Of a stretch of DNA of 64,000 nucleotides, positions 802 through 23,649 are shown one piece after another. The translations under genes and the position numbers were made by a program. The notes under the pieces are model-generated. The model made no database searches, was not told the origin of the DNA, and was given only the letters and a program-made list of their open reading frames with translations. This DNA comes from Bacteroidaceae bacterium (GTDB taxonomy: Bacteria; Bacteroidota; Bacteroidia; Bacteroidales; Bacteroidaceae): the NCBI GenBank assembly GCA_017466325.1, contig JAFTUK010000007.1, positions 11,315 through 75,314 of the forward strand. Reading direction: 5' to 3'. Position 1 is the stretch's first letter. Each line of letters opens with the position of its first letter.

Positions 802-1182
802 TTAGTACTTTTGCTTTTGGGGAATCACGCCACGCACCCCGCCTTTGGGATTGGACACGTCGCCCTTGTATCGGGGAATAACATGCATGTGACAATGAAA
901 GACCGATTGGCCAGCGGCTTCGCCTATGTTAATACCGACATTATATCCATTGGGATGGAAACGCTCGTCAATCTTCTGTCTGACATATTGCAGCACGACG
1001 TTCATGGCCTCGCGCTCATGGTTCGTCAGATCAAAGTAGGAGGCGACGTGCCTCTTGGGGATGATAAGCGCATGACCGGGCGAGACGGGATAGCCGTCGT
1101 AGAAGGCCACGCAGGTAGCTGTCTCGCAGATGATTTCCACTCGGCGGGAAAGGCGGCAGAAAGGACACTTCTCGCCTTCCAC
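802..1182 (-). CDS. HIT-family (histidine triad) nucleotide hydrolase
   Basis: 126-aa ORF with CPFC..GHALIIPKRHV and the histidine triad HCHMHVIPR. The start is GTG, and no ATG is available upstream in this frame. Confidence 0.85.
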   Translation of the reverse strand: MEGEKCPFCRLSRRVEIICETATCVAFYDGYPVSPGHALIIPKRHVASYFDLTNHEREAMNVVLQYVRQKIDERFHPNGYNVGINIGEAAGQSVFHCHMHVIPRYKGDVSNPKGGVRGVIPQKQKY

Positions 1183-1664
1183 GCGCGGCAGCTTGTTGAA
1201 ATGGTTGTATTGGTATAGTTCGTAGCTCTTATTGCTGAGAGGCTCTTGTATGGCAGTTTTACGTTACATTGGTAAGTGTATTGCGTGTGGATGGCGTGGA
1301 GCCGGAAGCCCTCTTCCGTCAGGTCACGTCGTACCGCAAAGTAGGCCGTCCCCTTAGGGGAAAGCAGGTTGGCGACATTCATCAACACCTCGGCCTGGGC
1401 GTAGGGTTCCAAGACGTTCAGCACATAGTTGCAGAAGATGGTGTCGAACTTGCCCTCAGGGAAGTCCGGGCGGTAGTAGTAATCGTAGCCGATGATGTCG
1501 AAGCCTTGCTTCCTGAGTTCGTCGGTATCGAAACCGAAACCGCATCCGAAGTCGAGAATCTTGCCTCTGAGCAGATTGTGCTGCATGAGGTATCGCGTGG
1601 GCACAGAGAAATCCGTGCGCTTGATGGCTGTAAGGTAGGGATGGTTTATCTTCTCTGGTTCCAT
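1026..1664 (-). CDS. Small class I SAM-dependent methyltransferase (3' end uncertain)
   Basis: Motif I ILDFGCGFG, then DTIFCNYVLNVL and PKGTAYFAV. The last ~55 codons overlap the HIT gene in another frame and look non-protein-like. Confidence 0.65.
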   Translation of the reverse strand: MEPEKINHPYLTAIKRTDFSVPTRYLMQHNLLRGKILDFGCGFGFDTDELRKQGFDIIGYDYYYRPDFPEGKFDTIFCNYVLNVLEPYAQAEVLMNVANLLSPKGTAYFAVRRDLTEEGFRLHAIHTQYTYQCNVKLPYKSLSAIRATNYTNTTISTSCRAWKARSVLSAAFPAEWKSSARQLPAWPSTTAIPSRPVMRLSSPRGTSPPTLI

Positions 1665-1666
1665 AG

Positions 1667-2746
1667 TTATTGGGGGCTTAGGGTTCGGTATCCCATGTTG
1701 ACAGCCATTTGGCTAAGAGGGGAGAATGTCTTGCGGCAGACGTTCAGGAACAGGTCGTTGGACATTTGCATCAAGTCCTGCGGGGAATAGCCCAAGGCAT
1801 AATACTCGTCCAAAGTATTGTCCCTTTTCCCGCTTTGTGGGATATACAAGCGCAAAGCTCTGTGCTGAACCTCTGCCATCTTGGGAAGATAGTAGTCGAG
1901 GTCGGGGATGCGGTTGCTCTTGGAAGAATTAAACGAGCCGTCGGTAGGAATCAGGTTCCAGTTCTGATTGTGCGACACGAAGCTCCACGGAATGAAGTGG
2001 TCGAGGTCATATTCGTTCCTTCCAAGTGGCGTGTCCTTGTATATGCACCAGATGGGGCCACCTATCTCGATGACCTTATTCCAGAACTTCTTCTGTCTGT
2101 TCAGCGGTTCCCGTTCTTCCAGGCGAAGCAACTTGCCGGATATGTTCGGTACGTTGGGATTCTTCGACTGCAAGAACAACGTGAGGTTCCACAAAGCAAA
2201 ATCGCGAAGCACCTCATAATTGGTTGTCAGATAACTGCTCCAACGCAGATTGATGGTAACCGTAAGCCTTTCACCACTACCCGTCAGGGAATACAAACAA
2301 TCATTCTCAAACGACTGGCTGCGACGTTGCATCTCGGAATCGTCGGTTGTGTCAATACAAGGCTTCTGAAAGCGGAAAGGGACATTATTCAACAGAATCT
2401 TGACTCTCTTCTTCACCTCCCTGTCCTCCGAAATGGCATTAGAGATGGCTTCATTCTTGTCTTCGAGCCTGTCATCTACCGTAATGCCCGTCAACAGAGC
2501 CACATCGGGAATAATCTTCGACATGGAATCGCCCTTGCCAAACGACAGTCGGATATACTGGGTCGGGTACCAAGCGTAGGCAACCATCCGAACCGCCACA
2601 TCGAGAGCCAGCATTTCATCCTTCTGCTCCTTGACGTGCATGTCGAGCAACGCCAAGAGCCAATAGAATTTGTACGTTGCAGTTGTCGTGTCAAACACGC
2701 GATTCATGGCGTTGGTTGACAATATGTCCGACTGAGGAATCTGCAT
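1667..2746 (-). CDS. HNH endonuclease-domain protein with an uncharacterised N-terminal domain
   Basis: C-terminal HNH pattern EYDLDHFIPWSF..NWNLIP..NSSKSNRIP. Its stop lies 2 nt before the methyltransferase ATG. I could not assign the N-terminal ATYKFYWLLALL region. Confidence 0.7.
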   Translation of the reverse strand: MQIPQSDILSTNAMNRVFDTTTATYKFYWLLALLDMHVKEQKDEMLALDVAVRMVAYAWYPTQYIRLSFGKGDSMSKIIPDVALLTGITVDDRLEDKNEAISNAISEDREVKKRVKILLNNVPFRFQKPCIDTTDDSEMQRRSQSFENDCLYSLTGSGERLTVTINLRWSSYLTTNYEVLRDFALWNLTLFLQSKNPNVPNISGKLLRLEEREPLNRQKKFWNKVIEIGGPIWCIYKDTPLGRNEYDLDHFIPWSFVSHNQNWNLIPTDGSFNSSKSNRIPDLDYYLPKMAEVQHRALRLYIPQSGKRDNTLDEYYALGYSPQDLMQMSNDLFLNVCRKTFSPLSQMAVNMGYRTLSPQ

Positions 2747-2782
2747 ATCTTTTACAAATTAAAATGTATTATAATACGAACG

Positions 2783-3061
2783 TCAGAATTCAGAATGTTT
2801 ACCGTCCACCCCTGTTTCAGTCTGGGAATCAACTTTCTCTTCATTTTTATCAAGCTCTTCATACCTGACAAGGTCTTTAAATTCCACGCCAAGCAACCTT
2901 GTTATCTTCATCAGCGATTCCAACGGAGGTTGTGACGAGTTGGTACACCACTTAGATACAGTAGTTGGCGCACATCCCAACTGCTTGGACAGCCAGAGAT
3001 TAGACTTCTTTTTTTCTGCCAGTATCACCTTCAGGCGATTGAGGTCTTTGTTACTTGCCAT
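2783..3061 (-). CDS. XRE/Cro-C1 family helix-turn-helix transcriptional regulator
   Basis: 92 aa. LWLSKQLGCAPTTVSKWCTNSSQPPLESLMKITRLLGV is a typical HTH_3 pattern. Confidence 0.8.
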   Translation of the reverse strand: MASNKDLNRLKVILAEKKKSNLWLSKQLGCAPTTVSKWCTNSSQPPLESLMKITRLLGVEFKDLVRYEELDKNEEKVDSQTETGVDGKHSEF

Positions 3062-3293: not shown

Positions 3294-4013
3294 CTAATCA
3301 ACACAATACGACCTTCCCAAAAAATCGGGAAACAAGTCTGTTTCATAATACTTATGGGCCAGTACGCGCATAAACTCAAATCCTGCGACATCTGTTCTAT
3401 ATACTATCGAACTGTTTTTTTTCGAATAATTCTTATGAAATCCATCAAGAGTATCGGGAAGTTTTATATCAGTCTGAACAGCCATTTCATCATAGAGGCG
3501 ATGTTCAAAAAGAGCCTGTTCGATATCGAATTCATCCGTAATGGGAAATGCAATCTGCAAATTAACGCCAGATTCCTTAACAGTCTTATTAAACGGTGTA
3601 TAAAGCTGTGGTATATTCAAATAAGCAATTAGTTCAAATATCACAGTTAGCAAAAGTGATGATTCGCAGCAATAGTCGTCATCCTTTACATAAAGGCTCC
3701 TCGCTAAAGCCAATCGATTCCCCGTCATTTCCTGCCACATTTTTTTATCTTGATCTCTTTTAGTCATGTTTATAACTACATCCATCAGATATTTTCCGAG
3801 AAAATGCACATCTTCCTTATTACCTTTAGATCGGTTATAAATATATAAGGATACCATTTGAATAGGGATAGAATGCGTATCCAATAATGGCATTGTACAA
3901 GCGGTGTTCTTTTCTATGACTAATCTCAACGTATCAAGTCTGTTCCTTATTTCTTTCTGTGTTGGACGACCTATTGAATCTGTCAAGAAAAAGAAATAGG
4001 TTAAATCCTCCAA
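3294..4013 (-). CDS. Hypothetical protein, downstream partner of the 775-aa ORF
   Basis: 239-aa ORF whose start overlaps the end of the upstream ORF by 13 nt. No motif recognised. Confidence 0.5.
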   Translation of the reverse strand: MEDLTYFFFLTDSIGRPTQKEIRNRLDTLRLVIEKNTACTMPLLDTHSIPIQMVSLYIYNRSKGNKEDVHFLGKYLMDVVINMTKRDQDKKMWQEMTGNRLALARSLYVKDDDYCCESSLLLTVIFELIAYLNIPQLYTPFNKTVKESGVNLQIAFPITDEFDIEQALFEHRLYDEMAVQTDIKLPDTLDGFHKNYSKKNSSIVYRTDVAGFEFMRVLAHKYYETDLFPDFLGRSYCVD

Positions 4014-6328
4014 AAATCAAAGCATCTGAGCGGATAGAATATATATTCTGTGTCAGAAGACTCAAATCCATACATACTCTTGTTGAGTCTTGCTACAGAC
4101 AAAATCTTATTTACATACTCTTCATAAATCTGCACTTGTAGTAATACTAAACTATAAAAATGCTTGATAATTGCAGCTTTTTTCTCTTTCTTTCCTTTAA
4201 GAATCCATGCCCATGTTTTCACCAAGATGGTATCTATACAGAATTTTGCAGGTAGAAGGTTATTACAGTCTTTTGAATAAAAATAAATCATAGAGGCTAT
4301 TAAACGCAGTGTAGCAAACAGATTGATTACAACTCTCCTCCCCTCTTTCTTCTTACCATCTATTTTCTGGATTTGCAAGTCTATCAATGAAACAATATCT
4401 TTGAAATTATTTCCTTCGCCATCCAACAAAACAAGAACCTTTTTAAATAACCTGCAACTCTCCTCGTCCGTCAGGAGGGTTTCATCAAACAAATACTCTG
4501 AGAAGAGTGTTGTCAACTTGTCCAAATCCCATCTGTCAAAACTCCCTTCTGGAAAATTCTCTTCCACATAATCATTAAGGGTAAGGAGTGCATTCGCTTC
4601 TGCATAACCATTATGTACAAAGACATATTTCCTCGGAAATTTTGATAACCCTAAGATAGAAGCGTCTCGGTACTTCGTATTCTTAGATGCATTTAATGAC
4701 TCTATTATGCCATCTCTTGCAGATAGAGTCCTATCGGTAATATCTTTAGCACTGAACCCCTTAAGTTCAAAAAGGAAAAGAGTGTCCACCCCGTCAATAT
4801 TCTTAGCTGCTACCACATCTCTACCATATTGGGGTTGGCCTTTAGACTGTTTTGGAGTTAACAAAATCCTATAGCCCATCTGCTTCAAGAGCAGTGGGAA
4901 AATATAGTCTAACTCATTGTCCTCTTTTAGGGTGGCTATATATTGCTTAATTATTTCTTGTTTTACATCCCAATCTTCAATAACTTTATTTATCCAATCC
5001 TCCTGTTCCATCGGTGTCATGGATTGTACCAGTTGTCTAGAAGGCATTGAGAACTTAATGTGCGCCAAATGATGTACAACTCCATTCTCATCACGCCAAC
5101 CACCACCTCTGGCAAGAACAACATTCTTTGCTATATCTTTCAAAATACTTTTGTGTCCCTTTTCCGCTTCTCTCATCTGTTCCTGCATGTGCACCTTCTG
5201 CAATCGCATCGTTTCCTGAAACTCAGACATGTGGCTATATCTGGGTGACAATTCTTTCATGCTTCGTCTCTTTTCCAGTGCATCCGCTCTTCGTTCATAG
5301 TATTGCTTAATGACATCTATATACTTACTCTCCAGTTTCGGCTTATTTAAGGCATTAATAACATGCCCCATATAGTCATCCAAATATGGGTCCAATTGTC
5401 CCATAAGGATATTTCTCACACGCTCCGATTTACTATCTATGAGAGGGAGCAATTTTGGTAAACGAGTCTCAGGATTACCATAGTCCTGAAGCATGCTAAT
5501 AATAAACAGGCATTGGAGATCTTCGGGTAAATCCTTCTGTGCATTAAAACTCGAGGTCTCAAAATGAAAATTATCCCATAGCCTTCTTCCCACAATACGG
5601 TACATGCCCTTTGGGTGCATCACAAATGACAATACCATATTCTGAAAATAGTCATTGTGTTCATGCAAACTTCTAAGACATCCTTCCATTCTTAATATAT
5701 CGGTAGGTTGAAGGTTCTCAGCTATACAGACAAAGATTTTAGTTAGAAACTCAGGGTCTTTCGCATGAATACCAATAGAACTATCTATTGCATCAAGTGA
5801 TGCCTCTTTCTTCTCCCCCCTTAGACCTTTTATCAACGACAAAACGCACTCCTCTTCAAATGCAGTTACCTCCTGTTCCATGAACATCCAATTGCACAAA
5901 GGAGTCACATAGGGTGTTGTATCGCCATTTATTAAATCAAGGATAACCTCTTCACATTTACCCTTTCTTTTTTCATTTAACTTACCGTGTATAAAGAGGA
6001 AGAATGCCATTGCTGAGGTCGAAGTGAACGAAGGAAGATTTATTGCTGTATCGAATGCCTTGTTCACCTCATGCTGCTTCAATGAATTCGCTTTTACAAA
6101 GGCCAGCGCGAAAAACTCTTTATTATCCTCGGGCGGATATTCAGCATAATAGCGTTCGAAATTGTTCTCCATCAGACCTGCCATAATGCTCAATCGATAT
6201 TGCGGTAATAAAGACATTAAAGTAACGGCTTCATCGTAATATGTGTTACCATATATTTGTGTGGCCCTGCTCATTAGCCCGTCAATGCCATCTTCCTTTC
6301 CTTCAAAGGATTGTATCACCCGTACCAT
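4001..6328 (-). CDS. Large helical protein with a central Mrr-like PD-(D/E)XK nuclease core
   Basis: 775-aa ORF. LDYIFPLLLKQMGYRIL..QYGRDVVAAK..LFLFELKG matches the restriction-endonuclease D..(E/Q)xK arrangement. No P-loop seen. Confidence 0.55.
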   Translation of the reverse strand: MVRVIQSFEGKEDGIDGLMSRATQIYGNTYYDEAVTLMSLLPQYRLSIMAGLMENNFERYYAEYPPEDNKEFFALAFVKANSLKQHEVNKAFDTAINLPSFTSTSAMAFFLFIHGKLNEKRKGKCEEVILDLINGDTTPYVTPLCNWMFMEQEVTAFEEECVLSLIKGLRGEKKEASLDAIDSSIGIHAKDPEFLTKIFVCIAENLQPTDILRMEGCLRSLHEHNDYFQNMVLSFVMHPKGMYRIVGRRLWDNFHFETSSFNAQKDLPEDLQCLFIISMLQDYGNPETRLPKLLPLIDSKSERVRNILMGQLDPYLDDYMGHVINALNKPKLESKYIDVIKQYYERRADALEKRRSMKELSPRYSHMSEFQETMRLQKVHMQEQMREAEKGHKSILKDIAKNVVLARGGGWRDENGVVHHLAHIKFSMPSRQLVQSMTPMEQEDWINKVIEDWDVKQEIIKQYIATLKEDNELDYIFPLLLKQMGYRILLTPKQSKGQPQYGRDVVAAKNIDGVDTLFLFELKGFSAKDITDRTLSARDGIIESLNASKNTKYRDASILGLSKFPRKYVFVHNGYAEANALLTLNDYVEENFPEGSFDRWDLDKLTTLFSEYLFDETLLTDEESCRLFKKVLVLLDGEGNNFKDIVSLIDLQIQKIDGKKKEGRRVVINLFATLRLIASMIYFYSKDCNNLLPAKFCIDTILVKTWAWILKGKKEKKAAIIKHFYSLVLLQVQIYEEYVNKILSVARLNKSMYGFESSDTEYIFYPLRCFDFWRI

Positions 6329-6348
6329 AAAATCAGGATTCCATCCTG

Positions 6349-6642
6349 CTATGCCGGCAATAAGATGGAACGACCACGCCCATCTCCAAACATGATCTTT
6401 TTCAGTAAAGACAAATTTCCATCTTTCTTTACCGCGATAAAAGCCAAAGACACGGCAAAATAATAGCCAGCACCATCATGCCCCAAACCTAATGGTTTGA
6501 TGATCCCCTCATGCTTGGCCTAGTATGATGGTGACTCGCTGAACTCAAATTCACCAACATCTGCTTTTTCATTCAAGAAATTTACGACCTTGGTGAGCTC
6601 CTCTTGAGAGTTCGGTATATTATTGCGCCCGTTAAATATCAT
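6349..6642 (-). pseudogene. Decayed small ORF or 5' leader remnant upstream of the 775-aa ORF
   Basis: Manual translation from the ATG at 6640-6642 gives MIFNGRNNIPNSQEELTKVVNFLNEKADVGEFEFSESPSY, then an in-frame TAG (6520-6522), then AKHEGIIKPLGLGHDGAGYYFAVSLAF... The 775-aa frame is also open upstream to 6475 without a start codon. Confidence 0.35.
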
Positions 6643-6816
6643 TGTTACCTTATTATCTTACTCACTTTTATTCTCTCCTTGATCTTCTTCCTTCATATGA
6701 TTCATCGTTTCTAGCAAATCCATTCGTTCCATTGTGGTCAGCCCTTCTACACTATTCTTATTAAGTAGCTCATCAATTTTTGTAGGGTCCACTTTAACCG
6801 CTTTGGGCAAATCCCT

Positions 6817-9800
6817 CTATATTACCCTCATTGGTTGAATAACGGTCACGGGACCTTCCTGCTCATATCTATAGGCAGCTGACAGATCTTTCATAATGGA
6901 ATGCGGTGCCTCAGCTCGTAACACTTTCTCGCCAAGGACGTAATAGAATAACACATAATTTTTCCTTCTCAAAAATTCATCCAGTATGTCCTTCCTAACG
7001 AATAGTCCAGTAACGCCATCTTCTTTGGAAGAATTAATCGCCGCAATAGTGTCATCTGTTTGTAATTTTACAATACCTCTTACATCAGAATTATATAGTC
7101 CCATCTCTTTCATCATCTCCACACAGGGCATATACACCGTCGTGAGATAATCGTCCTCGTAGGCTATGCCCTCCCAGTGTTCCTGCAATTGTGCTTCATA
7201 GGCCAACATTACATCACAAGGACTTCCATTTGATGGTCTTTCCCATGCAGGCAATTCGATAGCATTATAATACGCATCAGCCCAAGGATAGTCATTCCAC
7301 AAAAACTTATACATCCCATTTCTTTCTGGCATCCATCTTCCATAAAAGTTCTTGTCTCGACACCATTCCGCAAATGCTTCAGAATCAGATTTCTTCACAA
7401 AGGCCGCGTTCGTAATCACCACGGTCTCTTTATCACCCCCTGTAGCCTTGTCAAATCCTCTTAGCATCACGAAAGGAATACTCCCTTCTACTAACACTTG
7501 GTTCCTGAACGTCGGAACGTACTTGTTATTGTCTATCCACGATTCGTCTTGTGTTCCAATTACCTCCAACGCCTCTACACCACTCAAAAGTTTATTATAC
7601 GAATTATACACTTCAACATCAAGTGTTGGATCAAAATATGTCACCTCCGATGTATTCCATGGATATGGAGTTGGGGTAAGTTCATCTTCTTTTGCTTTGT
7701 CTGAATAATGATAAGAACTTCTTGTCACCTTATAACTATCCATTAGTCTAGCATTCAACCTAAACCAAGCTAACCACTGAAATTTTTTTCCTATACGTTC
7801 CTCATCATTGTGTGACCTATCAACCGAGTACTTTCCATTATCTAATGAACCCAGTTTATCATTCCATCCAAACACATTCTTGATATAATATGCTATTTCA
7901 GCCTCTTCTCTAGTCAAATCATCACCCAAATAGATTCCCCCAATCTCATCATACTTGAAATAATCACTACTCCTGTGTCTATTGTTGGTTCCTATTATAT
8001 AACGGTTAAAGTCCTCAAATCCAAAGATTGAGTTATACATCAATCTCGAACCATGCTGCATTCCAAAGTAGTCTCGATTTATATCTTCGTAAGGCGTTAT
8101 CTTATCCTCATCAAAAGGCAAAGCTGCAAATGGCGTTTGTATCTTTGACCAGCAATCATTATGTTCATCTAGAGCATATGCTCTTTCAATAATCTTCAAA
8201 GTCCATTGCCGCACTATCAAGTCTTGAGGCACAGTTTCAGCCTGCCCATAGAAGGTTTTGTATATGTATTCCGCGATGCTTCCTGCTAACTCCTCATTTC
8301 TCGTTGTTAGAACCACTCCGGCAACGGCACAGTACAATCCCGCTACGACGTATGGATCATTCACTTTCTCAAACTGTTTAAGTAGCCATAATATCACATC
8401 AGTATGACTATTCAATTGCTTCCGAATCATACGCATCGTCAAAGCACGACACTTAGGATGTGAACTGGTCAATAACCAACCCAGCCTGATAAGATACACC
8501 CTTTCTTGTTCATCCACACTAATCTCGGGATTAACGTCAATTGGGAACACTCCTATGATTCCACTGCCGTAATTCTCAAACAAACCGTTCACAAAATGCG
8601 TCCATAATAAGTCTCTCTTGCCAATTGTTTCGTATGATTTCAGATGCTCATGTATTTCAAGAGCTTGTTGCATTGACATCTCCTGCGGAGAGCGTAACAT
8701 TTTCAAATCACGCTCTATTGTAGGATCCAGTTCTATCATCTTGTCCATCACCTCATCGAATGTCATATCTGAACCCATTAGGTATGCTATATACTCCTCA
8801 CGCAAGAACTCATTGCGGCGAATCATTTCGCTCCGCTGTAACTGAGCACTTTGTCTCGTCCAACAATCAAATAGGGCCACCACTGCGTTCTCGAATTTAC
8901 TGGATGATACTTCTGGATGACGCTCAAAATATCGTTTCTTATCTGCTATCCATCCCAGTGTCTCATCAACATTCATCTTCGAGAGCATCAACTGCTCTGC
9001 CTTGTAATAGTCGCCAAAGTTCTCATATTCAAACATCACCGCCGCGCCACCTTCATCTGAACGGTCGTTCAACAGTAGGCTTGATGTCAACATGGCATTT
9101 AACAAGTCTTGACTCCAAAGTCTCCCAGGGCATAGCCTACGGGCATATTCTCTAGCTTTATTTCGCGAAATCGTATTAAAGTGGTTTGTATAAACAGAAT
9201 AGTTGGCAAGCTTCTTCAAATAACGGTCTGCAATATTCAGTTCTACATCCTCATCCACCTGTTGAGAGACGGCTACGTTTTTTTTCTCCACATACTTTTT
9301 GTAGATGGTCTCCTTCGACAAAGTGGACAACTCTTTCTGCGACATGGAATGAAAGGTCTCGCAGAATATTTTCAAAAACAACGGATTACCAAATGCCTCC
9401 AGGTTTTTCTCTTTGTATGATTGCGGAATCTCATACCTTTCGAAGAAATTGTTGATGGCCGTTTCTTTGTCCTCAAAACCATCTACTTCTATGGTCTTCC
9501 ATCGGGCATCTATCACAGCAAGGTCGTTCAATTCTTGTTCAAAAGGGCTCCTGACTGATATGATTAACTTGATGTTGTCATGTTTTGCTATTTCCGTTCT
9601 GAGTGCTCCAAGGTGGTTATTCCAGTAAGAGCAGCCCAGTCCTTCGTTGATGGCATCTATCACTATCACGGCATAGCGATTCTTCTTCTGCATGTCGTTA
9701 TTAAAGTCTTCAAAGCTCTTTTCTTCACACACCACACTTCTGATATGTTCTGTTGCTGTCTCGTGTGCACTGAACTCTGTCCCGAAAAATAGATAGATGT

Positions 9801-10920
9801 TAGCAAAATCTTGTTTCTTTGTGGCAAACTCACATAGACTATGGGTTTTGCCTGTTCCAGCCTTGCCTACCAGACAGACATTCTTGACCAACCCTCCTCG
9901 TAGGTATTCAAATGGAGAACCATCCCTCAACTTGATGACGCGCTTATTAAACTCTATTTCATCATCCCAAGAAGAAAGCACATTCTTAAACCTATCGTTT
10001 AAAGCATACTGGCAGAAAAAATCCAAGTTATCTATTCCCGTTTCTGTTTGCCTGAAATCCAACTTATCAGGGTGGTTATAAATATCATATATCTTTTTCA
10101 GGTCTTTCTCATTCAACCCTTTCAGGAACGTCTTAAGCGACTGCGCATATATTATCTTTTCGTCTATGTCCTTTTTAGATGTTATACTCTTCAACAGAAA
10201 ATCTAGTCGCTTGTTATCCTGATGCAAGTCTGACATATAACGGTCGTGAATAGAGTCAACAGCTTTTTTGCTAATCTCTATACTACGTCCCGTTCCGAAA
10301 GTAGTATTATCTTCCTTTTGCCAGTCTTCAGCAAATGATACTCCTTTTGTGGTTAATAGTGCGGAAATCTTTTCAATTGACAGATAACCCAGTGTCTCGT
10401 TGGTCTGCTGAGTGAGTATGCCTATTGCCCGTCCTTCTTTGTTCACAACTGGTGCCCCTGATAGACCATCATAATTTGCCAGTTTCAAAGTGTCATGTCT
10501 AACCAATGCACGGTCGTTCCAACCCTTTATTTCTAGGCGGTTCATCACCGACAGTTCAACCAAACTTGCTCCCATTGCCACCTCTTGCGGATAACCATAC
10601 ACTTTGAGAGCAAGGTCCTTTACAAACTTATCTTTTAATAAATTCAGAAAGTCTGGTGCTTCATACAGTTCTTCATCAGTTATAGTTAGAAGGGCTATAT
10701 CAGCCACGCCGCCAAGTTCTTCTGCCCGACAAGTGTATAGTTCTCCTTTCACATTGACAAAAATAGGTTCTGGAGCACCGGGATTACAGAAGTGCTCCCG
10801 AACTACATGCCGCGCTGTTATCAGTTGGCTTTTGTCTATAAAGAAAGCTGTCCCTTGCTCTTCACAGCATGTCACGGGGACAATCACTTGTTCTGTCAAT
10901 CTACCATTCAAAAAGCTCAT
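6817..10920 (-). CDS. Trypsin-like serine protease fused to a NACHT/STAND P-loop NTPase with a long C-terminal (sensor-like) region
   Basis: 1367 aa. Triad-like ITARHVV / VADIALL / GLSGAPVV. Walker A GKAGTGKT, Walker B VIVIDAINEG, LIISVRS, NPLFLKIF. About 850 aa of the C-terminus is unassigned. Confidence 0.8.
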   Translation of the reverse strand: MSFLNGRLTEQVIVPVTCCEEQGTAFFIDKSQLITARHVVREHFCNPGAPEPIFVNVKGELYTCRAEELGGVADIALLTITDEELYEAPDFLNLLKDKFVKDLALKVYGYPQEVAMGASLVELSVMNRLEIKGWNDRALVRHDTLKLANYDGLSGAPVVNKEGRAIGILTQQTNETLGYLSIEKISALLTTKGVSFAEDWQKEDNTTFGTGRSIEISKKAVDSIHDRYMSDLHQDNKRLDFLLKSITSKKDIDEKIIYAQSLKTFLKGLNEKDLKKIYDIYNHPDKLDFRQTETGIDNLDFFCQYALNDRFKNVLSSWDDEIEFNKRVIKLRDGSPFEYLRGGLVKNVCLVGKAGTGKTHSLCEFATKKQDFANIYLFFGTEFSAHETATEHIRSVVCEEKSFEDFNNDMQKKNRYAVIVIDAINEGLGCSYWNNHLGALRTEIAKHDNIKLIISVRSPFEQELNDLAVIDARWKTIEVDGFEDKETAINNFFERYEIPQSYKEKNLEAFGNPLFLKIFCETFHSMSQKELSTLSKETIYKKYVEKKNVAVSQQVDEDVELNIADRYLKKLANYSVYTNHFNTISRNKAREYARRLCPGRLWSQDLLNAMLTSSLLLNDRSDEGGAAVMFEYENFGDYYKAEQLMLSKMNVDETLGWIADKKRYFERHPEVSSSKFENAVVALFDCWTRQSAQLQRSEMIRRNEFLREEYIAYLMGSDMTFDEVMDKMIELDPTIERDLKMLRSPQEMSMQQALEIHEHLKSYETIGKRDLLWTHFVNGLFENYGSGIIGVFPIDVNPEISVDEQERVYLIRLGWLLTSSHPKCRALTMRMIRKQLNSHTDVILWLLKQFEKVNDPYVVAGLYCAVAGVVLTTRNEELAGSIAEYIYKTFYGQAETVPQDLIVRQWTLKIIERAYALDEHNDCWSKIQTPFAALPFDEDKITPYEDINRDYFGMQHGSRLMYNSIFGFEDFNRYIIGTNNRHRSSDYFKYDEIGGIYLGDDLTREEAEIAYYIKNVFGWNDKLGSLDNGKYSVDRSHNDEERIGKKFQWLAWFRLNARLMDSYKVTRSSYHYSDKAKEDELTPTPYPWNTSEVTYFDPTLDVEVYNSYNKLLSGVEALEVIGTQDESWIDNNKYVPTFRNQVLVEGSIPFVMLRGFDKATGGDKETVVITNAAFVKKSDSEAFAEWCRDKNFYGRWMPERNGMYKFLWNDYPWADAYYNAIELPAWERPSNGSPCDVMLAYEAQLQEHWEGIAYEDDYLTTVYMPCVEMMKEMGLYNSDVRGIVKLQTDDTIAAINSSKEDGVTGLFVRKDILDEFLRRKNYVLFYYVLGEKVLRAEAPHSIMKDLSAAYRYEQEGPVTVIQPMRVI

Positions 10921-12103
10921 ACTCTTGCTCTGTGATAATAGTATCTATGTGCAGCGTTTCTTTTTCTGCGTCATCCAAACCATTTATTAGCTTACTCATA
11001 TCACCTTTGTGACTAAATACTATTAGGCTTTTCCCATCTTCTTGATGACTTAGGGCTATTCTGCCTATTGTTCCCCAAGTAGGATATTCGTCTTTTCTGC
11101 CGCCCGGTATGAAGTATCTGTTCGAATTAATTTGTTCTAACAGGCTTTTACTTGTATTTCCGTTACTACCATGATGTGCCACCTTAATGGCATCACAATC
11201 CAACGGTTTATGTTCTTCTCCATACTTATTCTTGATGGCATTTTCTAATGTCACAGCAAATGAATCTCCTAACATAGCCACCTTGTGTACACCACACTCA
11301 AGCATGAATGCTATTGAAGAATAGTTGGTGTCCGATGTGTCAGTCCCTTCTTTCTCTGCCATCTTTTTCACATATTCTGCATCCAGTTTTTGGGGTAATG
11401 AAGCTGATATCTGTTTCTTTTCAAATTTATCTTTGTATGCATCTGCAAGTCTTATCAGTAATTCAAACAAGCTCTCACCTCCCCTGATACTATCATTCCA
11501 TACTTGCATAAAGTATTTATTGAAGGCATCCTTGAATCTTTTCTCTATTTCATCAAGTGCGTCTCTCGGAGGTCCTAACAACACGATTTTCCCGAAGCCC
11601 CCCTCTAAATCAAAATTGGGGGTCTGATCGGTTATATATTCTATATTCCAGGCATTTCGCCAGGGTTCTTTCTTCAATATTTCGCCTGCTAAAGTCTTTC
11701 CTTGCTCCGCGCTGATCTCCTTCTTGTAATTAATAGCATCAAACTCAGCTGGTAGAGCATTCTTAACCCATTGCAAAATTTCCTTCTGCTCTTCCGTCAG
11801 ATCTACAGTTTCATCCTCTTTTTTTACTCGTCCATAACAATTATACCAGATGTGATCTATTTGTAGATTGGGACATTTTTTCAGCATCTGTGCACAACCA
11901 TTGATATGGTCGCCATCAATATGTGTAGCTACAAGTAGATTGATATGACTTTGCAGCTCTCCCTCTACATATCTTTTCACTGCAGGTGTAAACTTACCGC
12001 AATCCACCATAATGACATATTGTTCTCCGCATTCTTTCACCAATCGGATAACGCAACAGTCCCCTATACCAACATCAAAAGAGCGAAAATAACACTTATT
12101 CAT
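10901..12103 (-). CDS. Metallo-beta-lactamase-fold hydrolase (ComEC-type MBL domain with a helical insert)
   Basis: 400 aa. VMVDCG, THIDGDHING (HxDxDH) and VAHHGSNGN. It overlaps the downstream protease-STAND start by 20 nt. Confidence 0.8.
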   Translation of the reverse strand: MNKCYFRSFDVGIGDCCVIRLVKECGEQYVIMVDCGKFTPAVKRYVEGELQSHINLLVATHIDGDHINGCAQMLKKCPNLQIDHIWYNCYGRVKKEDETVDLTEEQKEILQWVKNALPAEFDAINYKKEISAEQGKTLAGEILKKEPWRNAWNIEYITDQTPNFDLEGGFGKIVLLGPPRDALDEIEKRFKDAFNKYFMQVWNDSIRGGESLFELLIRLADAYKDKFEKKQISASLPQKLDAEYVKKMAEKEGTDTSDTNYSSIAFMLECGVHKVAMLGDSFAVTLENAIKNKYGEEHKPLDCDAIKVAHHGSNGNTSKSLLEQINSNRYFIPGGRKDEYPTWGTIGRIALSHQEDGKSLIVFSHKGDMSKLINGLDDAEKETLHIDTIITEQEYELFEW

Positions 12104-12238: not shown

Positions 12239-12738
12239 TCAATATGTCTCATTTAACTCACGGAACATATCTTGAAATGGTATACATTTTACGCCAAATT
12301 GATTGCAAACGTCCGGCAATTTGAATTCAGAAGAGCCGTTGTGATTAGACACCTCAAAGGAAACAACGGTATAATTAGCCAGATCAGTCGCAGCGTATGA
12401 AACCAGAAAATGTCCGCAGCATCGGGGCGGAGAAACTTTTCAAGAGCCTTCTGTGAACGGTTCTGCGATGCTGCCCATCGGGATATGGTGGCATATTTCG
12501 CCACCGCCTGCTGGTTGGTTTGGAACGTCTCAATAGATGCCACATTGAAATTCGCATCTACCCACAGATGCAATGCATCCGAATTAATAAACAGCTCTTG
12601 TTGTACTCTGTCCAACAAGACAATAGTGCCACTATTAGACATGTCCTTGAACTTATCCCACAGCGTCACAGCCACATCCATTGGAGCATATCCACGATAT
12701 GGTGTGATAAACGTATTTGCATCTATTAGGTACTTCAT
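12239..12738 (-). pseudogene. DUF4411-type (PIN-like) protein, frameshifted
   Basis: The N-terminus MKYLIDANTFITPY is DUF4411/PIN-like. The tracked ORF tail (IFWFHTLRLIWLII...) looks like nonsense. Shifting one nt at 12412 restores HFLVSYAATDLANYTVVSFEVSNHNGSSEFKLPDVCNQFGVKCIPFQDMFRELNETY, with the stop at 12239-12241. Confidence 0.7.
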
Positions 12739-13871
12739 CTTGCTATCTGTCTTTTATCACCAACCACATTATGGAACGTATCACCTTTTAATCCAGCCAA
12801 ACGATATGCGTCAAGATAGAGAATCTTGTTTGCATGCGCCGCATTAGATAAATGAATCATAAAGGTTGGACTTATTCTACGGAGTGCCATAGTCCTAAAA
12901 GGAGGATGACCACTATTATCTTTATGAGGAATCGGCTCATTCTTCCATATTGCAAACAATTGGAATTGCCTAGCCCTGTTAATAAAATTCAGTTCAGCCG
13001 CCCTTCGTGCTATGGTATATCTGCTAACCTTAAACCTTCTTGCAAGTTGGGTATATACATCTTCCGTATCCCCAGTCCATACCTGCCTAAACAGCCCTTC
13101 TGGAACCAGGAAATGAGCCGCCACTTTATCGCAGTACCGCTCGTCATCAGAAGAATTGATAATGCTATCTTCGTCTCCTACTCCAGATTCGTAACCAATT
13201 AACACATGAACAAATTCATGTATCAGCGTAAACGTCTGGGCAACTTGGGCATCACCTCCGTTTACGAAAATAAAGGGAGCATTCTTGTCAATTAAAGCAA
13301 AACCCCTACAATCAGAAACGGATATCTTTCTAAAAATATTATTACCAACCATGTTGTTGATGCAAACCATAGTGCCAGAATCTTCCATTCTCGTCACCAA
13401 TTTACGAATTGCATCACCCATAGAATACTCTTTAAAGGCCCAGTCAAGACTCAGGCCCAAAATATTTCTGATTGTTTGACAAGTTGTTTCAATAGGCGTA
13501 TCCGTCGCAATACTTCCCACATAACTTGGGGCTTCTATACCATTACCTTCAATGTAAGAAGAAAGCCATTCCTGACGTTCTTGAACTTTTCTAACTTCGT
13601 CCATAACATTTAAAGAAACAGAACCGCCCCCAGAACGGAACATCGGTATGGGTACAGTTTCAACAGGAGGCTCATCAAGAAATAGATATCCTAAAGGTAC
13701 ATACACGCTGTTAGCGAATTCCTCCAATTGCTTGAAGGTGGGTTTTCGCTCTTCATTAATCCATTTACTGAAAGCCGGATTCTTCTGGGCATACTCCTCC
13801 ACGGACAGCCCGTATCGCGTAACTGCCCATATCAACATTTCTTTTTTTATGTCCAGCCTTTCTGGTTTCAT
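12735..13871 (-). CDS. HTH domain + ImmA/IrrE-family (COG2856) zinc metallopeptidase
   Basis: 378 aa. HEXXH motif in LIHEFVHVLIG, downstream FLVPEGLF, and an N-terminal HTH-like region. It overlaps the DUF4411 start by 4 nt. Confidence 0.85.
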   Translation of the reverse strand: MKPERLDIKKEMLIWAVTRYGLSVEEYAQKNPAFSKWINEERKPTFKQLEEFANSVYVPLGYLFLDEPPVETVPIPMFRSGGGSVSLNVMDEVRKVQERQEWLSSYIEGNGIEAPSYVGSIATDTPIETTCQTIRNILGLSLDWAFKEYSMGDAIRKLVTRMEDSGTMVCINNMVGNNIFRKISVSDCRGFALIDKNAPFIFVNGGDAQVAQTFTLIHEFVHVLIGYESGVGDEDSIINSSDDERYCDKVAAHFLVPEGLFRQVWTGDTEDVYTQLARRFKVSRYTIARRAAELNFINRARQFQLFAIWKNEPIPHKDNSGHPPFRTMALRRISPTFMIHLSNAAHANKILYLDAYRLAGLKGDTFHNVVGDKRQIAR

Positions 13872-14689: not shown

Positions 14690-15943
14690 TCACACCCACA
14701 TAAGCCACTTCCATACCGGCACAACGGGTATTCCCTCTTCCGTGCCCTCCTCATCGTAAGTAATCAGAAGGCACTTCCAGTTCTCGTGTGCTTTGGCATA
14801 CTTCGCCAGTGGTGGCACTTCCCTGTTGTAAGTGGCCTCATCCTTGATGCTGTAGGACACCTGTATGGCCAACTTCTCGTCAGGCACAATGAAGTCTATC
14901 TCCTTCTCCGCGTTCAGGAAAAACACATTCTTTTTGCCAAACCGCCTACACAGTTCCACCGCCATCATGTTTTCCAGTAGCGATGTCTCTGAATTCATCA
15001 AAAACAGATTCAGCAGACCGTTGTCAACGAAGTAGTATTTCTTCTGCATTTCCTTTTCCGTCAGCTTTCCGACCTCGTTCTCCATGGGTAGTATCAGCCA
15101 ACTGTCAGAGGCGTAATCCGCATAGTCTATAGTAGTAGGTACACTGATAGGCGACCCCGTTGACACAATCACATTCTTCAGTCTGTTATACGACAGCGGT
15201 TGCTTCACGCTCTCTGCCATCTTCTTGATCAGGATGTTCAGCACCCTGTCGTTCTTAATGTTGTTTCGTGCACAGATGTCACCCAGATAAATCTTCTGGT
15301 ACAAGCTTGAAAGCATAGCCCGCTTGTTCTTAAACGACTGGATCTCTGGCAGACCACCGTAATAAAAGTACTCATTCAGATGCCGTTTCACCTCGCTTCT
15401 CTGAATCGTGTCATACTCCCAATGCTCCTTCAGTTCCACCTGCTGCGCTGCCAGATACTCTTTGAATGAATATGGGTACGCATCATAGATAAAGAACCGT
15501 CCGCCCAGCGTAGTTGCCACTTCCTTGCTCAGCATCTTCGCATTGCTACCCGTTACATACACCCTGTATTTCGCATCAGCCAACCTCCGCACGAACTTAT
15601 CCCAATGCGGAATATTCTGCACCTCATCCAGAAATACCACTGGCTTCTTACCATACAGTTCCAGATGGGCTTCCAGCAGACTGTTGAAGTCTTCCGTCTG
15701 GAATTCCGCCAGACGCTCATCCTCAAAGTCCACAAACAAGATCTCATCCCATCCCTTTCCAGCAGCCTGCAACTGACGCACACGCTGATACAACAAGTAC
15801 GACTTACCTGCATGTCTCACGCCAACTATCACATAGTTGCCATTCTCTTCAAAGTCTGTGGGACGGTTCACAATCACCGCCTCATCCACTTCGCGTTGCT
15901 TGCTAATCAAGCATTGTTTGATGACATCTTTACTGACACTCAT
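14690..15943 (-). CDS. AAA-type ATPase (AAA_14 + DUF4143 architecture)
   Basis: 417 aa. Walker A GVRHAGKSYLL and Walker B VVFLDEVQ. This architecture is common in Bacteroidales accessory DNA. Confidence 0.8.
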   Translation of the reverse strand: MSVSKDVIKQCLISKQREVDEAVIVNRPTDFEENGNYVIVGVRHAGKSYLLYQRVRQLQAAGKGWDEILFVDFEDERLAEFQTEDFNSLLEAHLELYGKKPVVFLDEVQNIPHWDKFVRRLADAKYRVYVTGSNAKMLSKEVATTLGGRFFIYDAYPYSFKEYLAAQQVELKEHWEYDTIQRSEVKRHLNEYFYYGGLPEIQSFKNKRAMLSSLYQKIYLGDICARNNIKNDRVLNILIKKMAESVKQPLSYNRLKNVIVSTGSPISVPTTIDYADYASDSWLILPMENEVGKLTEKEMQKKYYFVDNGLLNLFLMNSETSLLENMMAVELCRRFGKKNVFFLNAEKEIDFIVPDEKLAIQVSYSIKDEATYNREVPPLAKYAKAHENWKCLLITYDEEGTEEGIPVVPVWKWLMWV

Positions 15944-20050: not shown

Positions 20051-21067
20051 ATGAATCAAGAGAAAGAATATAGTATGTCTTTTTTGATAGAAGACTTAAC
20101 TTATGATACGAAAAACAATATTGTTGAAGCGGTTGATTCGAAAGGTAAAACCATGGCTGTAGACACTTGGAAATATGCTACTTACTTTTTTGAGAATATA
20201 CAACGGAAATACATTTCAGAACAGCGTGTTTTTCTTGATGGATTGCGATTAGATAAGTTCGTGGAAATTTTCATAAGAGATAAACATCATCATAAGATAT
20301 ATACATTCTTGACAAATAAAAATTTATGCATTCTTCATCAGGAGATGCAAGAAATACATGCTACACACATAAATTTGGTTGCGTTATATGGACTTTGCGC
20401 ATATATACGAGAAATAATAAGTCGTAGATATGCACTCCTCTTAAAACCTACATTGAAGGATACTATCGAAGAGATTGGAGGTCTGGATAATTTGGAAAGT
20501 GTAACATTTAACCTTAAGAATGGCAATAAGCATAAAACAGACTTTTGCGAGGTTAAGAAATTGCTTTTTGAGAGTCTGGAAAGTAGCGATTTGTCAACTA
20601 TAGGTTATCATAGGATAGTGAAAAAAGTTGATGTTTACACAAAAGAATATGGGCAGATAGAGTTTGTACGATATATCTCAAAATTCTTACATGTGTATTT
20701 CAGTTCTATAAAACGAAGAAGGAATAGTTATCTTACAACGACTGAACAAAAGTTGGTATGTTTTCTACTTAATTTTTTTGATTTTGCTCCTGAAATTGTA
20801 ACGACATCCCGATTTAGACAACTTTTTAACAATAAGTATGAAGAGGTTGACCACATATTTCCTCTCTCTATTCCTGGTTTATTAAAAACAAAATTAGAAC
20901 TCTATTTAGAGTTTATTCCTTATTGCATCTGGAGTAGAGGGGATATAAACCCTCTAAAAGAAAAAGAATTGCATAAAGAGGCTTGGGTAAACCACTTCAC
21001 TATACAAATGGGGGAAATGCCAAATATCTCAGCACTAGTAGAATTGATAGATGGTATAGTTGGATAA
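20051..21067 (+). CDS. Hypothetical protein
   Basis: 338-aa AT-rich ORF that starts 18 nt from the IS remnant end. No motif recognised. Confidence 0.5.
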   Translation: MNQEKEYSMSFLIEDLTYDTKNNIVEAVDSKGKTMAVDTWKYATYFFENIQRKYISEQRVFLDGLRLDKFVEIFIRDKHHHKIYTFLTNKNLCILHQEMQEIHATHINLVALYGLCAYIREIISRRYALLLKPTLKDTIEEIGGLDNLESVTFNLKNGNKHKTDFCEVKKLLFESLESSDLSTIGYHRIVKKVDVYTKEYGQIEFVRYISKFLHVYFSSIKRRRNSYLTTTEQKLVCFLLNFFDFAPEIVTTSRFRQLFNNKYEEVDHIFPLSIPGLLKTKLELYLEFIPYCIWSRGDINPLKEKELHKEAWVNHFTIQMGEMPNISALVELIDGIVG

Positions 21068-21093
21068 AACAACCATATTTTGTTAATTATTGA

Positions 21094-21140
21094 TGGGTGG
21101 TAGGAACTAACAGTTTATTTCTTCCGCCCATATTTTTTTA
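21094..21140 (+). terminator. Possible terminator after the 338-aa ORF
   Basis: tgggtgg...ccgccca stem with a large loop, followed by tattttttt. Confidence 0.35.
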
Positions 21141-21196
21141 TGTCTAACTTTGCGCCATCAAAACAAATAGATGTTAAACTTTAATTGATAGAATAT

Positions 21197-22381
21197 ATGA
21201 ATACTGAAAGAATATCCAGAATCAAAGAGATTGTATCTCAGAGCATGAGAGAAGATGGTTGGACGCCAATGTCAACCATTGGTTTGAAACTTATCGCTCA
21301 AGGAATTGACGTCAAAGAAGATGGTTTCGTTAAATTGAAACCTTTCTTTGAGTCATTAAGTGACCATTTTATTATTGATATTGATGAACAAAGTCGTTTG
21401 CCATTGGTTAAGTGTAGTTATATGACAGCTACAAATTCTGTTCCCAATATCAAAAAGAACTCGAAATGTAAAAAAGGAGAAATAATGCATTTAACTCAAT
21501 GGGCGAATATAAACCAAATGAGTGCTATCGAGACATTGAAGAATATGGCACTTCCTGAACGTTGGACGTACAGCGTTGAGGATAAAAATTACCCAAATCC
21601 AATTCTTGCCAAGTACTTGAAATGGACTTTTGTGAAACTTATGAAGGATGACAAAATCCTGTATTCAAATGACTACGCCTCTTTCAATACAGGATTGGTA
21701 GATAAGTTCTACAAACCGATATATGCAGTTTTTGATAAAAACAAGTTTAATAAACAACCTTGGCATTTTTTAGACTTTTGTGTAGCAGGAAGTAGTACTG
21801 TCGCTGCAAGAAAGTTGACGGACAACTTTTCTCATCTACCAGAAAGAGCATCATATATACAAAATTATGACGATGTGATTTATGACACATCACTCCCTGT
21901 TGATGTAAATTGGGAACACATCATCTTAGAAAATATCGATAGAATGCCAACTGAACTTCTTCGTCAAGTCTGCTTTGGCTCTTTTGAGGTTCTTGATCAG
22001 TCTCAGATTAGGGATAATGACAAATTGAGTTACTATGATGAACTAAGAAATTTTTTGGAGTCAAATCCTATGCGATTGTCTATCATTTCAAGCATGATGG
22101 GGATGGCGGTTGAAACAGCAAAGCATCGAGTAGCATGGAATTATAAGACGGCAATACCTGTGTATTATCCTAAAGATGACTCCGTGCATTTGATTTTACC
22201 TTTGGCTTTAAACATTAATGAACCAGAGGAAATCTCAATCGCACTGGTAATGACCAAAACGCCTTCAGGTCGGTATCGTGCAGTTACCATCTTTACATTA
22301 GATATGGCATATAGTAATGCTAGATTGGTTACGAAACCTTCAAGTGATTGGTTAATAGCAGAGTCAATTAATTCATTATAA
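21197..22381 (+). CDS. OST-HTH/LOTUS-like N-terminal domain + DUF3825-like C-terminal domain protein
   Basis: ISRIKEIVSQSMREDGWTPMSTIGLKLIAQGIDVKEDGFVKLKPFFES is LOTUS-like. LAKYLKWTFVKLMKDDKI..FNTGLVDKFYKPIYAVF resembles DUF3825, recalled from memory. I prefer the ATG at 21197 over the tracked TTG at 21185. Confidence 0.5.
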   Translation: MNTERISRIKEIVSQSMREDGWTPMSTIGLKLIAQGIDVKEDGFVKLKPFFESLSDHFIIDIDEQSRLPLVKCSYMTATNSVPNIKKNSKCKKGEIMHLTQWANINQMSAIETLKNMALPERWTYSVEDKNYPNPILAKYLKWTFVKLMKDDKILYSNDYASFNTGLVDKFYKPIYAVFDKNKFNKQPWHFLDFCVAGSSTVAARKLTDNFSHLPERASYIQNYDDVIYDTSLPVDVNWEHIILENIDRMPTELLRQVCFGSFEVLDQSQIRDNDKLSYYDELRNFLESNPMRLSIISSMMGMAVETAKHRVAWNYKTAIPVYYPKDDSVHLILPLALNINEPEEISIALVMTKTPSGRYRAVTIFTLDMAYSNARLVTKPSSDWLIAESINSL

Positions 22382-22403
22382 ATCATATGATAGAATAATC
22401 GCT

Positions 22404-22595
22404 ATGAAGAAAATTGACAGCAAAAGTATAGAATTAACAGGGTTGCAAAGACTTACACAAGTCCAACTTATCAATATAATTTTAAGAAAGGATGAATTAG
22501 AGAAACAACTGAGTTCAGAAGTAAAGAAACTTCACAAGGCAAATAGACAACTTAGAGAGTTGATTGAAGAAATGTATTGTTTAATGAATCAATAA
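22404..22595 (+). CDS. Small coiled-coil protein
   Basis: 63-aa ORF in an operon context. The sequence is heptad-like and charged. Confidence 0.4.
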   Translation: MKKIDSKSIELTGLQRLTQVQLINIILRKDELEKQLSSEVKKLHKANRQLRELIEEMYCLMNQ

Positions 22596-22607
22596 AATAT
22601 AGAAATC

Positions 22608-23243: not shown

Positions 23244-23649
23244 GCATTTGGATGATAAGTTCAACTTTGGCAAGTTTGCAAGATGTACATTTGCTGAAGT
23301 TGTTGAATATAACCCAGAATATATTTCATGGGTAGTTGAAAATGTGAGCGGAGCGATATGCGTCTTTGCTGATTCTGTTATAGAAGAACTCCGATTGCTA
23401 TTTCCCCAGTTTGAAATCTCCCCTGCTTTTGAAGCAATGCGAAATCAGCGAATTGCTGAATATGAATATATGGAAGAAGGCTACAACGAAAATGAGGATT
23501 TTTATGATCATCGTTTCAATGACGAATGCGAACTTCCTACATATGAACGATATGCTGGGTCATATGCACAGAACGAAATGGGGTATAGTGATGATGACAT
23601 AGACACTATATTTGACGGGGACGCTTCTGCTTATTGGAATATAGATTAG
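23230..23649 (+). CDS. Hypothetical protein with an acidic C-terminal ..SYAQNEMGYSDDDIDTIFDGDASAYWNID tail
   Basis: An internal ATG at 23230 overlaps the previous stop by 14 nt. The upstream part of tracked ORF 23137.. overlaps the 211-aa gene. Confidence 0.5.
   Translation: MTYIEHLDDKFNFGKFARCTFAEVVEYNPEYISWVVENVSGAICVFADSVIEELRLLFPQFEISPAFEAMRNQRIAEYEYMEEGYNENEDFYDHRFNDECELPTYERYAGSYAQNEMGYSDDDIDTIFDGDASAYWNID

Follow-up and report, generated by a model that had tools for sequence, protein, structure and literature searches.

We analysed a pair of overlapping genes in a 64,000-nucleotide (nt) stretch of the genome of a Bacteroidaceae bacterium (GenBank assembly GCA_017466325.1, contig JAFTUK010000007.1, positions 11,315 to 75,314 of the forward strand), hereafter called the window. 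The upstream open reading frame (ORF) encodes a protein of 400 amino acids (aa) with a metallo-beta-lactamase (MBL) fold, and the downstream ORF encodes a 1367-aa protein in which a trypsin-like protease is joined to a STAND NTPase and which is assigned to the Avs2 family below (Table 1). The lengths of the two ORFs and their overlap of 20 nt are exactly as described in the first-pass annotation, which had been made from the sequence alone. At the junction, which reads ...GAG TAT GAG CTT TTT GAA TGG TAG in the MBL frame, the ATG of the avs2 gene lies inside the end of the MBL gene, and this overlap suggests that the two genes are co-expressed. A search of the 185-nt spacer that precedes the MBL gene found no Bacteroides-type promoter motif (TAnnTTTG). 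The pair had been placed in the most AT-rich block of the window. Its surroundings are a broad block of low G+C (GC) content at 2-24 kb (GC 0.40, vs 0.51 at 24-64 kb), and the most AT-rich part of that block is at 20-24 kb (GC 0.34).

Table 1. Positions of the gene pair, of the predicted elements of its two products, and of neighbouring features in the window.
Feature	Positions	Strand	Basis
MBL-fold gene, 400 aa, predicted pro-nuclease	10901-12103	-	ORF, profile matches, AlphaFold core, fold matches
Predicted first cleavage site, Ile130-Ser131 (KKEI-SA), insertion 1	11711-11716	-	Conservation, segment below pLDDT 50
Predicted second cleavage site, Ile232-Ser233 (KKQI-SA), insertion 2	11405-11410	-	Conservation, segment below pLDDT 50
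20-nt overlap of MBL gene end (EYELFEW-stop) and avs2 gene start (MSFLNG)	10901-10920	-	ORF list and sequence
Protease-STAND (avs2) gene, 1367 aa	6817-10920	-	
Trypsin-like serine protease effector domain, Avs2 aa 1-195, triad H38/D74/S154	10336-10920	-	Pfam, PADLOC, fold
All-helical extension/insertion between effector and NTPase, Avs2 aa 196-345	9886-10335	-	Model helices 210-344, before beta-strand 347-352
STAND NTPase (NBD-HD1-WHD), Avs2 aa 346-650; Walker A G352-T359 (K358), Walker B D422, R457	8971-9885	-	Avs2 profiles, 9o4e, NLRC4 fold
Helical TPR-like sensor domain, Avs2 aa 651-1100	7621-8970	-	Aligns with EcAvs2 (9o4e) residues 640-1150
Beta-rich C-terminal sensor domain (CTD), Avs2 aa 1101-1367	6820-7620	-	Alignment with EcAvs2 1150-1470; PADLOC PDLC02162 to aa 1354
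TAG stop (6817-6819), then 52 in-frame codons and ancestral TAA; lost acidic C-terminal tail	6658-6819	-	Aligned with L007 and L008 at DNA and protein level
ImmA/IrrE (Peptidase_M78, RmrA-like) gene overlapping DUF4411 gene, directly upstream of MBL gene	12289-13871	-	
DUF4411 (PIN-like) gene, lesion near 12410	12289-12738	-	T5 to T4 vs L021
Olokun-like genes	3294-6328	-	775-aa ORF and overlapping 239-aa ORF
417-aa AAA_14 + DUF4143 ATPase	14690-15943	-	PADLOC candidate system PDC-S01, 1.7e-95
359-aa HNH_4 protein, 92-aa Cro/C1-type HTH protein and 212-aa S-adenosylmethionine (SAM)-methyltransferase, left edge of low-GC block	1026-3061	-	
Lowest-GC segment of the window (0.33-0.36); DUF3825/OST-HTH protein at 21185-22381	20051-23649	+	
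Two tandem tRNA-Asn(GTT) genes, 37 nt apart	59304-59490	+	

The large protein begins with a trypsin-like serine protease. The Pfam profile Trypsin_2 matched aa 23-168 with 38.9 bits (cut-off 27.6; 1.8e-9), the whole model being covered, and the motifs ITARHVV, VADIALL, and GLSGAPVV were located at aa 34-40, 72-78, and 152-159. The motifs of the NTPase follow in the order GKAGTGKT (aa 352-359), VIVIDAINEG (418-427), LIISVRS (452-458), and NPLFLKIF (512-519). In an alignment of 32 homologues with identities down to 27%, the protease residues H38, D74, and S154 were invariant, as were G355, G357, K358, D422, N425-E426-G427, and R457 of the NTPase. An AlphaFold model of aa 1-660, built on the same 32-homologue alignment (pLDDT 88.7, pTM 0.82), showed a two-barrel protease at aa 13-181, an all-helical part at aa 210-344, and an NTPase of the NBD-HD1-WHD type. 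When this model was compared by Foldseek, the chymotrypsin-fold proteins MarP/Rv3671c, V8, and HtrA/DegS were retrieved for the protease (target TM score ~0.7), and NLRC4 was retrieved for the NTPase. The chymotrypsin-fold triad and P-loop NTPase proposed in the first-pass annotation are supported by the Trypsin_2 match, the invariant residues, and the model; every motif that it had quoted for the two proteins was present at a located position, and the profile scores, the invariance, and the fold model exclude a chance occurrence. The helical region between protease and NTPase (aa 196-345) was the most divergent, with identity among homologues falling to 25-30%. A helical insertion or extension ahead of the NTPase has been reported as peculiar to Avs2, and VcAvs2 and EcAvs2 both have an equivalent.

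The NTPase and everything downstream of it matched Avs2. Six PADLOC Avs2 models matched the large protein (best 3e-115), one of which spanned aa 345-1354 (2e-100), and the NCBIfam Avs2 model (NF041813) matched at 1e-106 over profile positions 165-829 and a second stretch. In a phmmer search of PDB sequences, the structure of EcAvs2 determined by cryogenic electron microscopy (9o4e) was found at 1.4e-36, aligned over aa 349-992 and 1017-1353, and the best plasmid matches were genes annotated by PGAP as avs2. The last ~850 aa, in which no recognisable motif had been seen at first, are homologous to the TPR and C-terminal sensor domains of Avs2. As for the NTPase, which had been labelled NACHT, the order of its motifs is indeed NACHT-like, but the label itself does not hold: the Pfam P-loop matches were weak (AAA_24; NACHT, PF05729, 19.5 bits against a cut-off of 26.7). 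Judged from its motifs and profile scores, this domain is an Avs2-type STAND module with NACHT-like motif order, below the level of Pfam NACHT.

The TPR-like domain contains D970-F-N-R973-Y974, R1035, and E1041-RIGKKFQW, which are kept in the clade, and the motifs DFxRY and ERIGKKxQW are common to EcAvs2 and the large protein. In the EcAvs2 structure paper (bioRxiv 10.64898/2026.04.30.721860), the contacts to the bridging ATP and to the terminase were assigned to D981, T1128, R1130, R1132, E1362, and E1364. In the phmmer alignment, at ~24% identity, D981, R1132, and E1362 correspond to D970, R1035, and E1250 of the large protein; all three residues match those of EcAvs2 and do not vary across the Bacteroidales clade. 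Residues Y1049, R1104, K1107, and others of VcAvs2 were tentatively matched to DFxRY and ERIGKK by motif alone.

In the MBL protein, the motifs THIDGDHING and VAHHGSNGN were located at aa 60-69 and 308-316, and the metal-binding residues H61-I-D63-G-D65-H66, D280, and H310-H311 were all invariant in the alignment of MBL homologues. Pfam Lactamase_B matched with 24.4 bits (cut-off 22.7), and NCBIfam Avs1a matched over nearly the full length (8.8e-56). The PADLOC profiles for LmuA-MBL, Avs1a, and the RT-associated MBL gave 7e-56, 2e-41, and 3e-29, respectively. The match to ComEC/Rec2 was weak (TIGR00361, 3.5e-8; 9ic4, a "competence protein", 5.5e-3 by phmmer against PDB sequences). AlphaFold gave a model with a mean pLDDT of 66.8, in which the MBL core was confident and two segments at ~aa 88-146 and 188-238 fell below 50. 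The top PDB matches of this model by Foldseek all belonged to the MBL superfamily and were generic; the two disordered insertions and this mean pLDDT account for their low TM scores, and a solved "gated" MBL was not among them. Each of the low-confidence segments contains one Ile-Ser pair in a similar context (KKEI-SA and KKQI-SA, the hyphen marking the predicted cut). Among 15 homologues, the first site is kept as E-I/V-S and the second as I/V followed by S/G/A. By analogy with the gated MBLs described below, the two segments are putative regulatory (gating) insertions.

Homologues of the MBL protein with 58-99% identity were found on other Bacteroidales, Prevotellaceae, Phocaeicola, and Porphyromonas contigs. 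According to the called genes, the MBL gene at every homologous locus examined was followed by a Trypsin_2 gene of ~1360-1430 aa with the same 20-nt overlap, and the products of these downstream genes were 49-99% identical to the large protein of the window. The adjacency that the first-pass annotation had proposed to check was thus conserved throughout, together with the overlap. The flanks were unrelated between loci and consisted of capsule genes, SIR2 genes, AAA_21/RloB, or an integrase. Since the MBL and avs2 genes were always adjacent among unrelated flanks, the pair is regarded as a self-contained mobile cassette. In a scan of genome contigs with the MBL alignment, which used two narrow peptide patterns only, seven loci were found, all but one of them in Bacteroidales. 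More distant MBL homologues encoded on plasmids (25-29% identity) precede either Avs1b-Avs1c or protease-HamA-HamB, in agreement with the published finding that the module is exchanged among sensors. Across the homologous loci, the C-terminus of the MBL protein (E-Y-E-L-F-E-W) and the N-terminus of Avs2 (M-S-F/Y-L-N-G) were nearly invariant, which probably reflects a dual-coding constraint in the 20-nt overlap.

Systems of this kind have been characterised in other bacteria. Tuck et al. (Science 2025, PMC12799240) showed the MBL of Hachiman and AVAST systems to be a "gated" pro-nuclease, which is cut by a partner trypsin-like protease after two conserved isoleucines. Evans et al. (bioRxiv 10.1101/2025.11.14.688446) reconstituted VcAvs2 and VcMBL of Vibrio cholerae, mapped terminase-dependent cuts at Ile133-Ser134 and Ile232-Ser233, identified the product as a Zn-dependent dsDNase, and recorded the module in 29 STAND families, among them Avs1, Avs2, and Avs4. 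Guo et al. (bioRxiv 10.64898/2026.08.25.746987) showed that the sensor is linked to the ATPase domain of the terminase through two bridging ATP molecules and that assembly of the protease domains into a C4 tetramer is obligatory. In the V. cholerae system, the large terminase binds the Avs2 sensor, Avs2 tetramerises, the MBL zymogen is cut, and the resulting DNase kills the infected cell. The same pair of MBL and protease is known from AVAST type 1, Hachiman, Lamassu, and DRT systems; this trypsin-MBL module corresponds to MBL clade 1 of Evans et al. and to the gated nuclease of Tuck et al.

The pair in the window resembles the V. cholerae system most closely. In both, the MBL gene comes first and the avs2 gene second, and VcAvs2 has the same order of domains (trypsin, helical insertion, STAND NTPase, TPR, and CTD). 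Compared by published residue numbers, the protease residues H32/S151 of V. cholerae correspond to H38/S154 here, and the MBL catalytic residues mutated in V. cholerae, D65/D276, correspond to D65/D280. The mapped cuts I133-S134 and I232-S233 of VcMBL have counterparts in the predicted cuts I130-S131 and I232-S233 of the window. The two differ in host (here Bacteroidota), in the length of Avs2 (1367 or 1420 aa vs 1461 aa), and in the C-terminal tail, which is absent in the window allele. EcAvs2 (9o4e) is homologous in its NTPase, TPR, and C-terminal sensor and likewise has a helical extension before the NTPase. However, its N-terminal effector is non-enzymatic and uncharacterised, and it has no partner gene, whereas a serine protease and a separate, predicted MBL zymogen are found here.

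The other relatives share the module and differ in the sensor. In AVAST type 1 (EpiAvs1a/Avs1b/Avs1c; PMC12799240), the gene of an MBL pro-nuclease with two Ile-containing gating loops likewise precedes that of a protease-STAND fusion, and terminase triggers the proteolysis that unmasks the nuclease; however, Avs1b belongs to a different STAND family, is ~1900 aa long, and is followed by a small avs1c gene, neither of which is found here. The same mobile MBL-protease module, in which the MBL is cut twice with specificity for Ile, occurs in Hachiman HamMAB, which combines a protease-HamA with the MBL HamM, and in variants of Lamassu and DRT; a Plesiomonas plasmid has a homologous MBL upstream of HamA-HamB. 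Sensing in these systems is done by a helicase complex that detects DNA, by an SMC-like protein, or by a reverse transcriptase, rather than by a STAND pattern-recognition receptor. The MBL domain of the ComEC/Rec2 competence nuclease has an HxDxDH-type core in common with the MBL protein, but ComEC is a membrane DNA-uptake protein without the two gating insertions and without a protease partner.

Taken together, the pair is very likely a two-gene Avs2-trypsin/MBL antiphage system, in which an AVAST type 2 sensor is combined with the mobile module of trypsin protease and gated MBL nuclease. The homology, the folds, the catalytic residues, the candidate cleavage sites, and the conserved adjacency and overlap are observed in the pair itself. 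During infection, the TPR and C-terminal domains would bind the ATPase domain of the large terminase subunit of the phage, probably via ATP-mediated contacts, and the STAND NTPase would then drive tetramerisation. The four N-terminal protease domains would thereby be assembled in active form and would cut the 400-aa MBL zymogen after Ile130 and Ile232, in two loops that are predicted to occlude the active site. The freed protein would act as a Zn-dependent DNase that degrades DNA indiscriminately, and the infection would be aborted. The terminase trigger, the cleavage of the MBL protein, the DNase activity, and the abortive outcome are predicted from the homologues. In the first-pass annotation, the large protein had been read as an effector (protease)-NTPase-sensor antiphage protein working with an MBL nuclease partner. 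This functional reading stands by homology, but the novelty claimed with it does not. The system had been called uncharacterised and its two-gene layout unnamed; profile matches to a named system, which had been named beforehand as a result that would refute the proposal, were found, namely Avs2 for the large protein and Avs1a or protease-associated MBL for its partner, and the architecture has been reconstituted and solved in V. cholerae.

Several observations weigh against this assignment or against parts of it. The large protein scored 358 bits with NF041813, whose equivalog cut-off is 1000; the protein lacks the N-terminal effector part of that model and belongs to a distant clade. Identity to EcAvs2 across the NTPase and sensor is only ~24%, and of the contact residues of EcAvs2, T1128 is aligned to V and E1364 to I, while R1130 and W1266 fall in indels. 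Nevertheless, on the profile and structure matches listed above, the homology of the large protein to Avs2 is not in doubt despite the sub-threshold NCBIfam score. The MBL protein also remained below an equivalog cut-off (189 bits vs 420 for NCBIfam Avs1a) and is only 25-29% identical to annotated Avs1a MBLs. Furthermore, the protease-dependent conversion of MBL to a DNase is known only from the Vc, Pfl, Kp, Epi, and At homologues, so the Bacteroidales members are assigned to this mechanism from sequence. Avs2 homologues can also respond to phage proteins other than terminase, such as Ksap1/2, and a premature stop deprives the window allele of a 52-aa tail.

The scores of the MBL protein raise the question of whether the pair is instead an AVAST type 1 system, with the MBL protein as Avs1a and the large protein as a short Avs1b. 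Avs1a is the best NCBIfam match of the MBL protein, the plasmid MBL homologues sit in avs1a-avs1b-avs1c operons, and the region at aa 13-210 of the large protein matched the N-terminus of Avs1b (NCBIfam 1.4e-11; PADLOC N-terminal profile 2.6e-14). However, the Avs1b profiles matched the large protein only in this protease region, with 42 bits against a cut-off of 1500, and from aa 345 onwards the matches to Avs2 profiles and EcAvs2 were far stronger. The protein is also 1367-1420 aa long vs ~1900 aa for Avs1b, and no avs1c-like ORF follows: positions 6329-6816 contain no ORF of at least 80 aa, only ORF calls of 40-44 aa. In the literature, moreover, the protease-MBL module is described as moving between sensors. 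Assignment to Avs1 was rejected as extremely unlikely, since the sensor matches Avs2 and not Avs1b and an avs1c-like ORF is lacking. A second alternative keeps the Avs2-trypsin/MBL system and its output unchanged and supposes that the sensor has drifted to another trigger, such as a phage protein with an ATPase fold or a Ksap-like protein. KpAvs2 and EcAvs2 respond to Ksap1/2 and vs.8 besides terminases, and at ~24% identity several contact residues of EcAvs2 are not conserved in the sensor. On the other hand, the motifs for terminase-ATP and bridging-ATP contacts that are in common with EcAvs2 (D970, R973-Y974, R1035, ERIGKKFQW, and E1250) are invariant in the clade, and the terminase ATPase domain is what both of the Avs2 effector types tested so far respond to. 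A changed trigger is conceivable, but we regard it as improbable.

The remaining alternatives concern the C-terminal tail. Codon 1368 is TAG in the window, and it is GAG in two relatives, L007 (98.7% identical) and L008 (87% identical). The reading frame is preserved over the 52 codons after the TAG, up to the ancestral stop, and these codons differ little from the tail of these relatives. The 1367-aa product was also called on three other contigs and on 2 of the 10 distinct contigs with an identical MBL, and the remaining 8 encode 1420 aa. An assembly error is an unlikely source of the premature stop, as gene calls on five further contigs, which stem from different runs, give the same 1367-aa product. 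Apart from the motif [EDQ]GL[TS][TS]xE, the charged tail shows little conservation, and its length varies from 0 to 81 aa among natural homologues. Many of these end at most 1-10 residues from ...MRVI (for example P0147, P0150, P0157, P0175, and P0179), and because they end near the same point, loss of the tail is probably tolerated. A decaying, non-functional locus, with avs2 as a nonsense-truncated pseudogene in an island that accumulates lesions, would account for the loss of 52 codons by TAG in place of GAG, for the 1-nt deletion in a T-run that alters the C-terminus of the neighbouring DUF4411 gene product (149 vs 166 aa), and for the 1420-aa form kept by most contigs with an identical MBL. 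However, the stop comes after the last conserved structured segment (...IQPMRVI), within 1-10 residues of where many natural homologues terminate; the catalytic and sensor motifs are all intact, and at least five contigs assembled independently carry the same truncated allele. Decay is therefore considered very unlikely. We also considered whether the acidic tail (~50-80 aa, with the conserved [EDQ]GL[TS][TS]xE helix motif) has a regulatory role, setting the threshold at which the Avs2 proteins of the Bacteroidales clade are activated, for instance through autoinhibition or as an anti-decoy. Many members of the clade carry the tail, others repeatedly lack it, and within one population it is polymorphic via a nonsense mutation. 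We give such a role a rather small probability. If the tail were regulatory, the 1367-aa allele would be a naturally selected variant, either hair-trigger or desensitised.

The genes around the pair differ among relatives. The ImmA/IrrE-DUF4411 pair adjoins the MBL gene in all close relatives and is absent beside MBL homologues at 58-71% identity. It was rejected as a part of the system, as its adjacency is restricted to close relatives, and is probably a separate toxin-antitoxin-like or regulatory module. The deletion in the DUF4411 gene shifts the frame after ~residue 110, and the 149-aa form is also present on L014-L016; the lesion may be a genuine frameshift or may come from a homopolymer error. 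Downstream of the pair, the 775-aa Olokun-like ORF matches OloA at aa 4-436 and, as a fusion with it, the N-terminal half of OloB at aa 459-772; the C-terminal part of OloB (profile positions 335-550) is matched by the overlapping 239-aa ORF. Either OloB is split or frameshifted here, or this is a natural variant. Most relatives have an unrelated 565-aa protein without a Pfam match at this position, and the junction downstream of the pair is therefore a swap point. At the position of the AAA_14 + DUF4143 ATPase, just a DUF4143 fragment of 208-233 aa is present in relatives L021 and L022. The HNH_4, HTH, and SAM-methyltransferase genes may form another defence or restriction-like module. The ORFs flanking the DUF3825/OST-HTH gene gave no Pfam or PADLOC match.

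The kind of system found here is already known and mechanistically characterised, and the pair in the window is a fairly divergent member from Bacteroidales. The conceptual gain is accordingly small: a system of Proteobacteria, Avs2-trypsin with a gated MBL nuclease, is extended to Bacteroidales of the gut and rumen, in which it is a common and tightly conserved two-gene cassette. Its recognition could help to predict which Bacteroidales phages, crAss-like phages included, are restricted via terminase sensing. In addition, any regulatory role of the C-terminal tail of Avs2 could be tested cheaply with the tail-less allele that segregates naturally.

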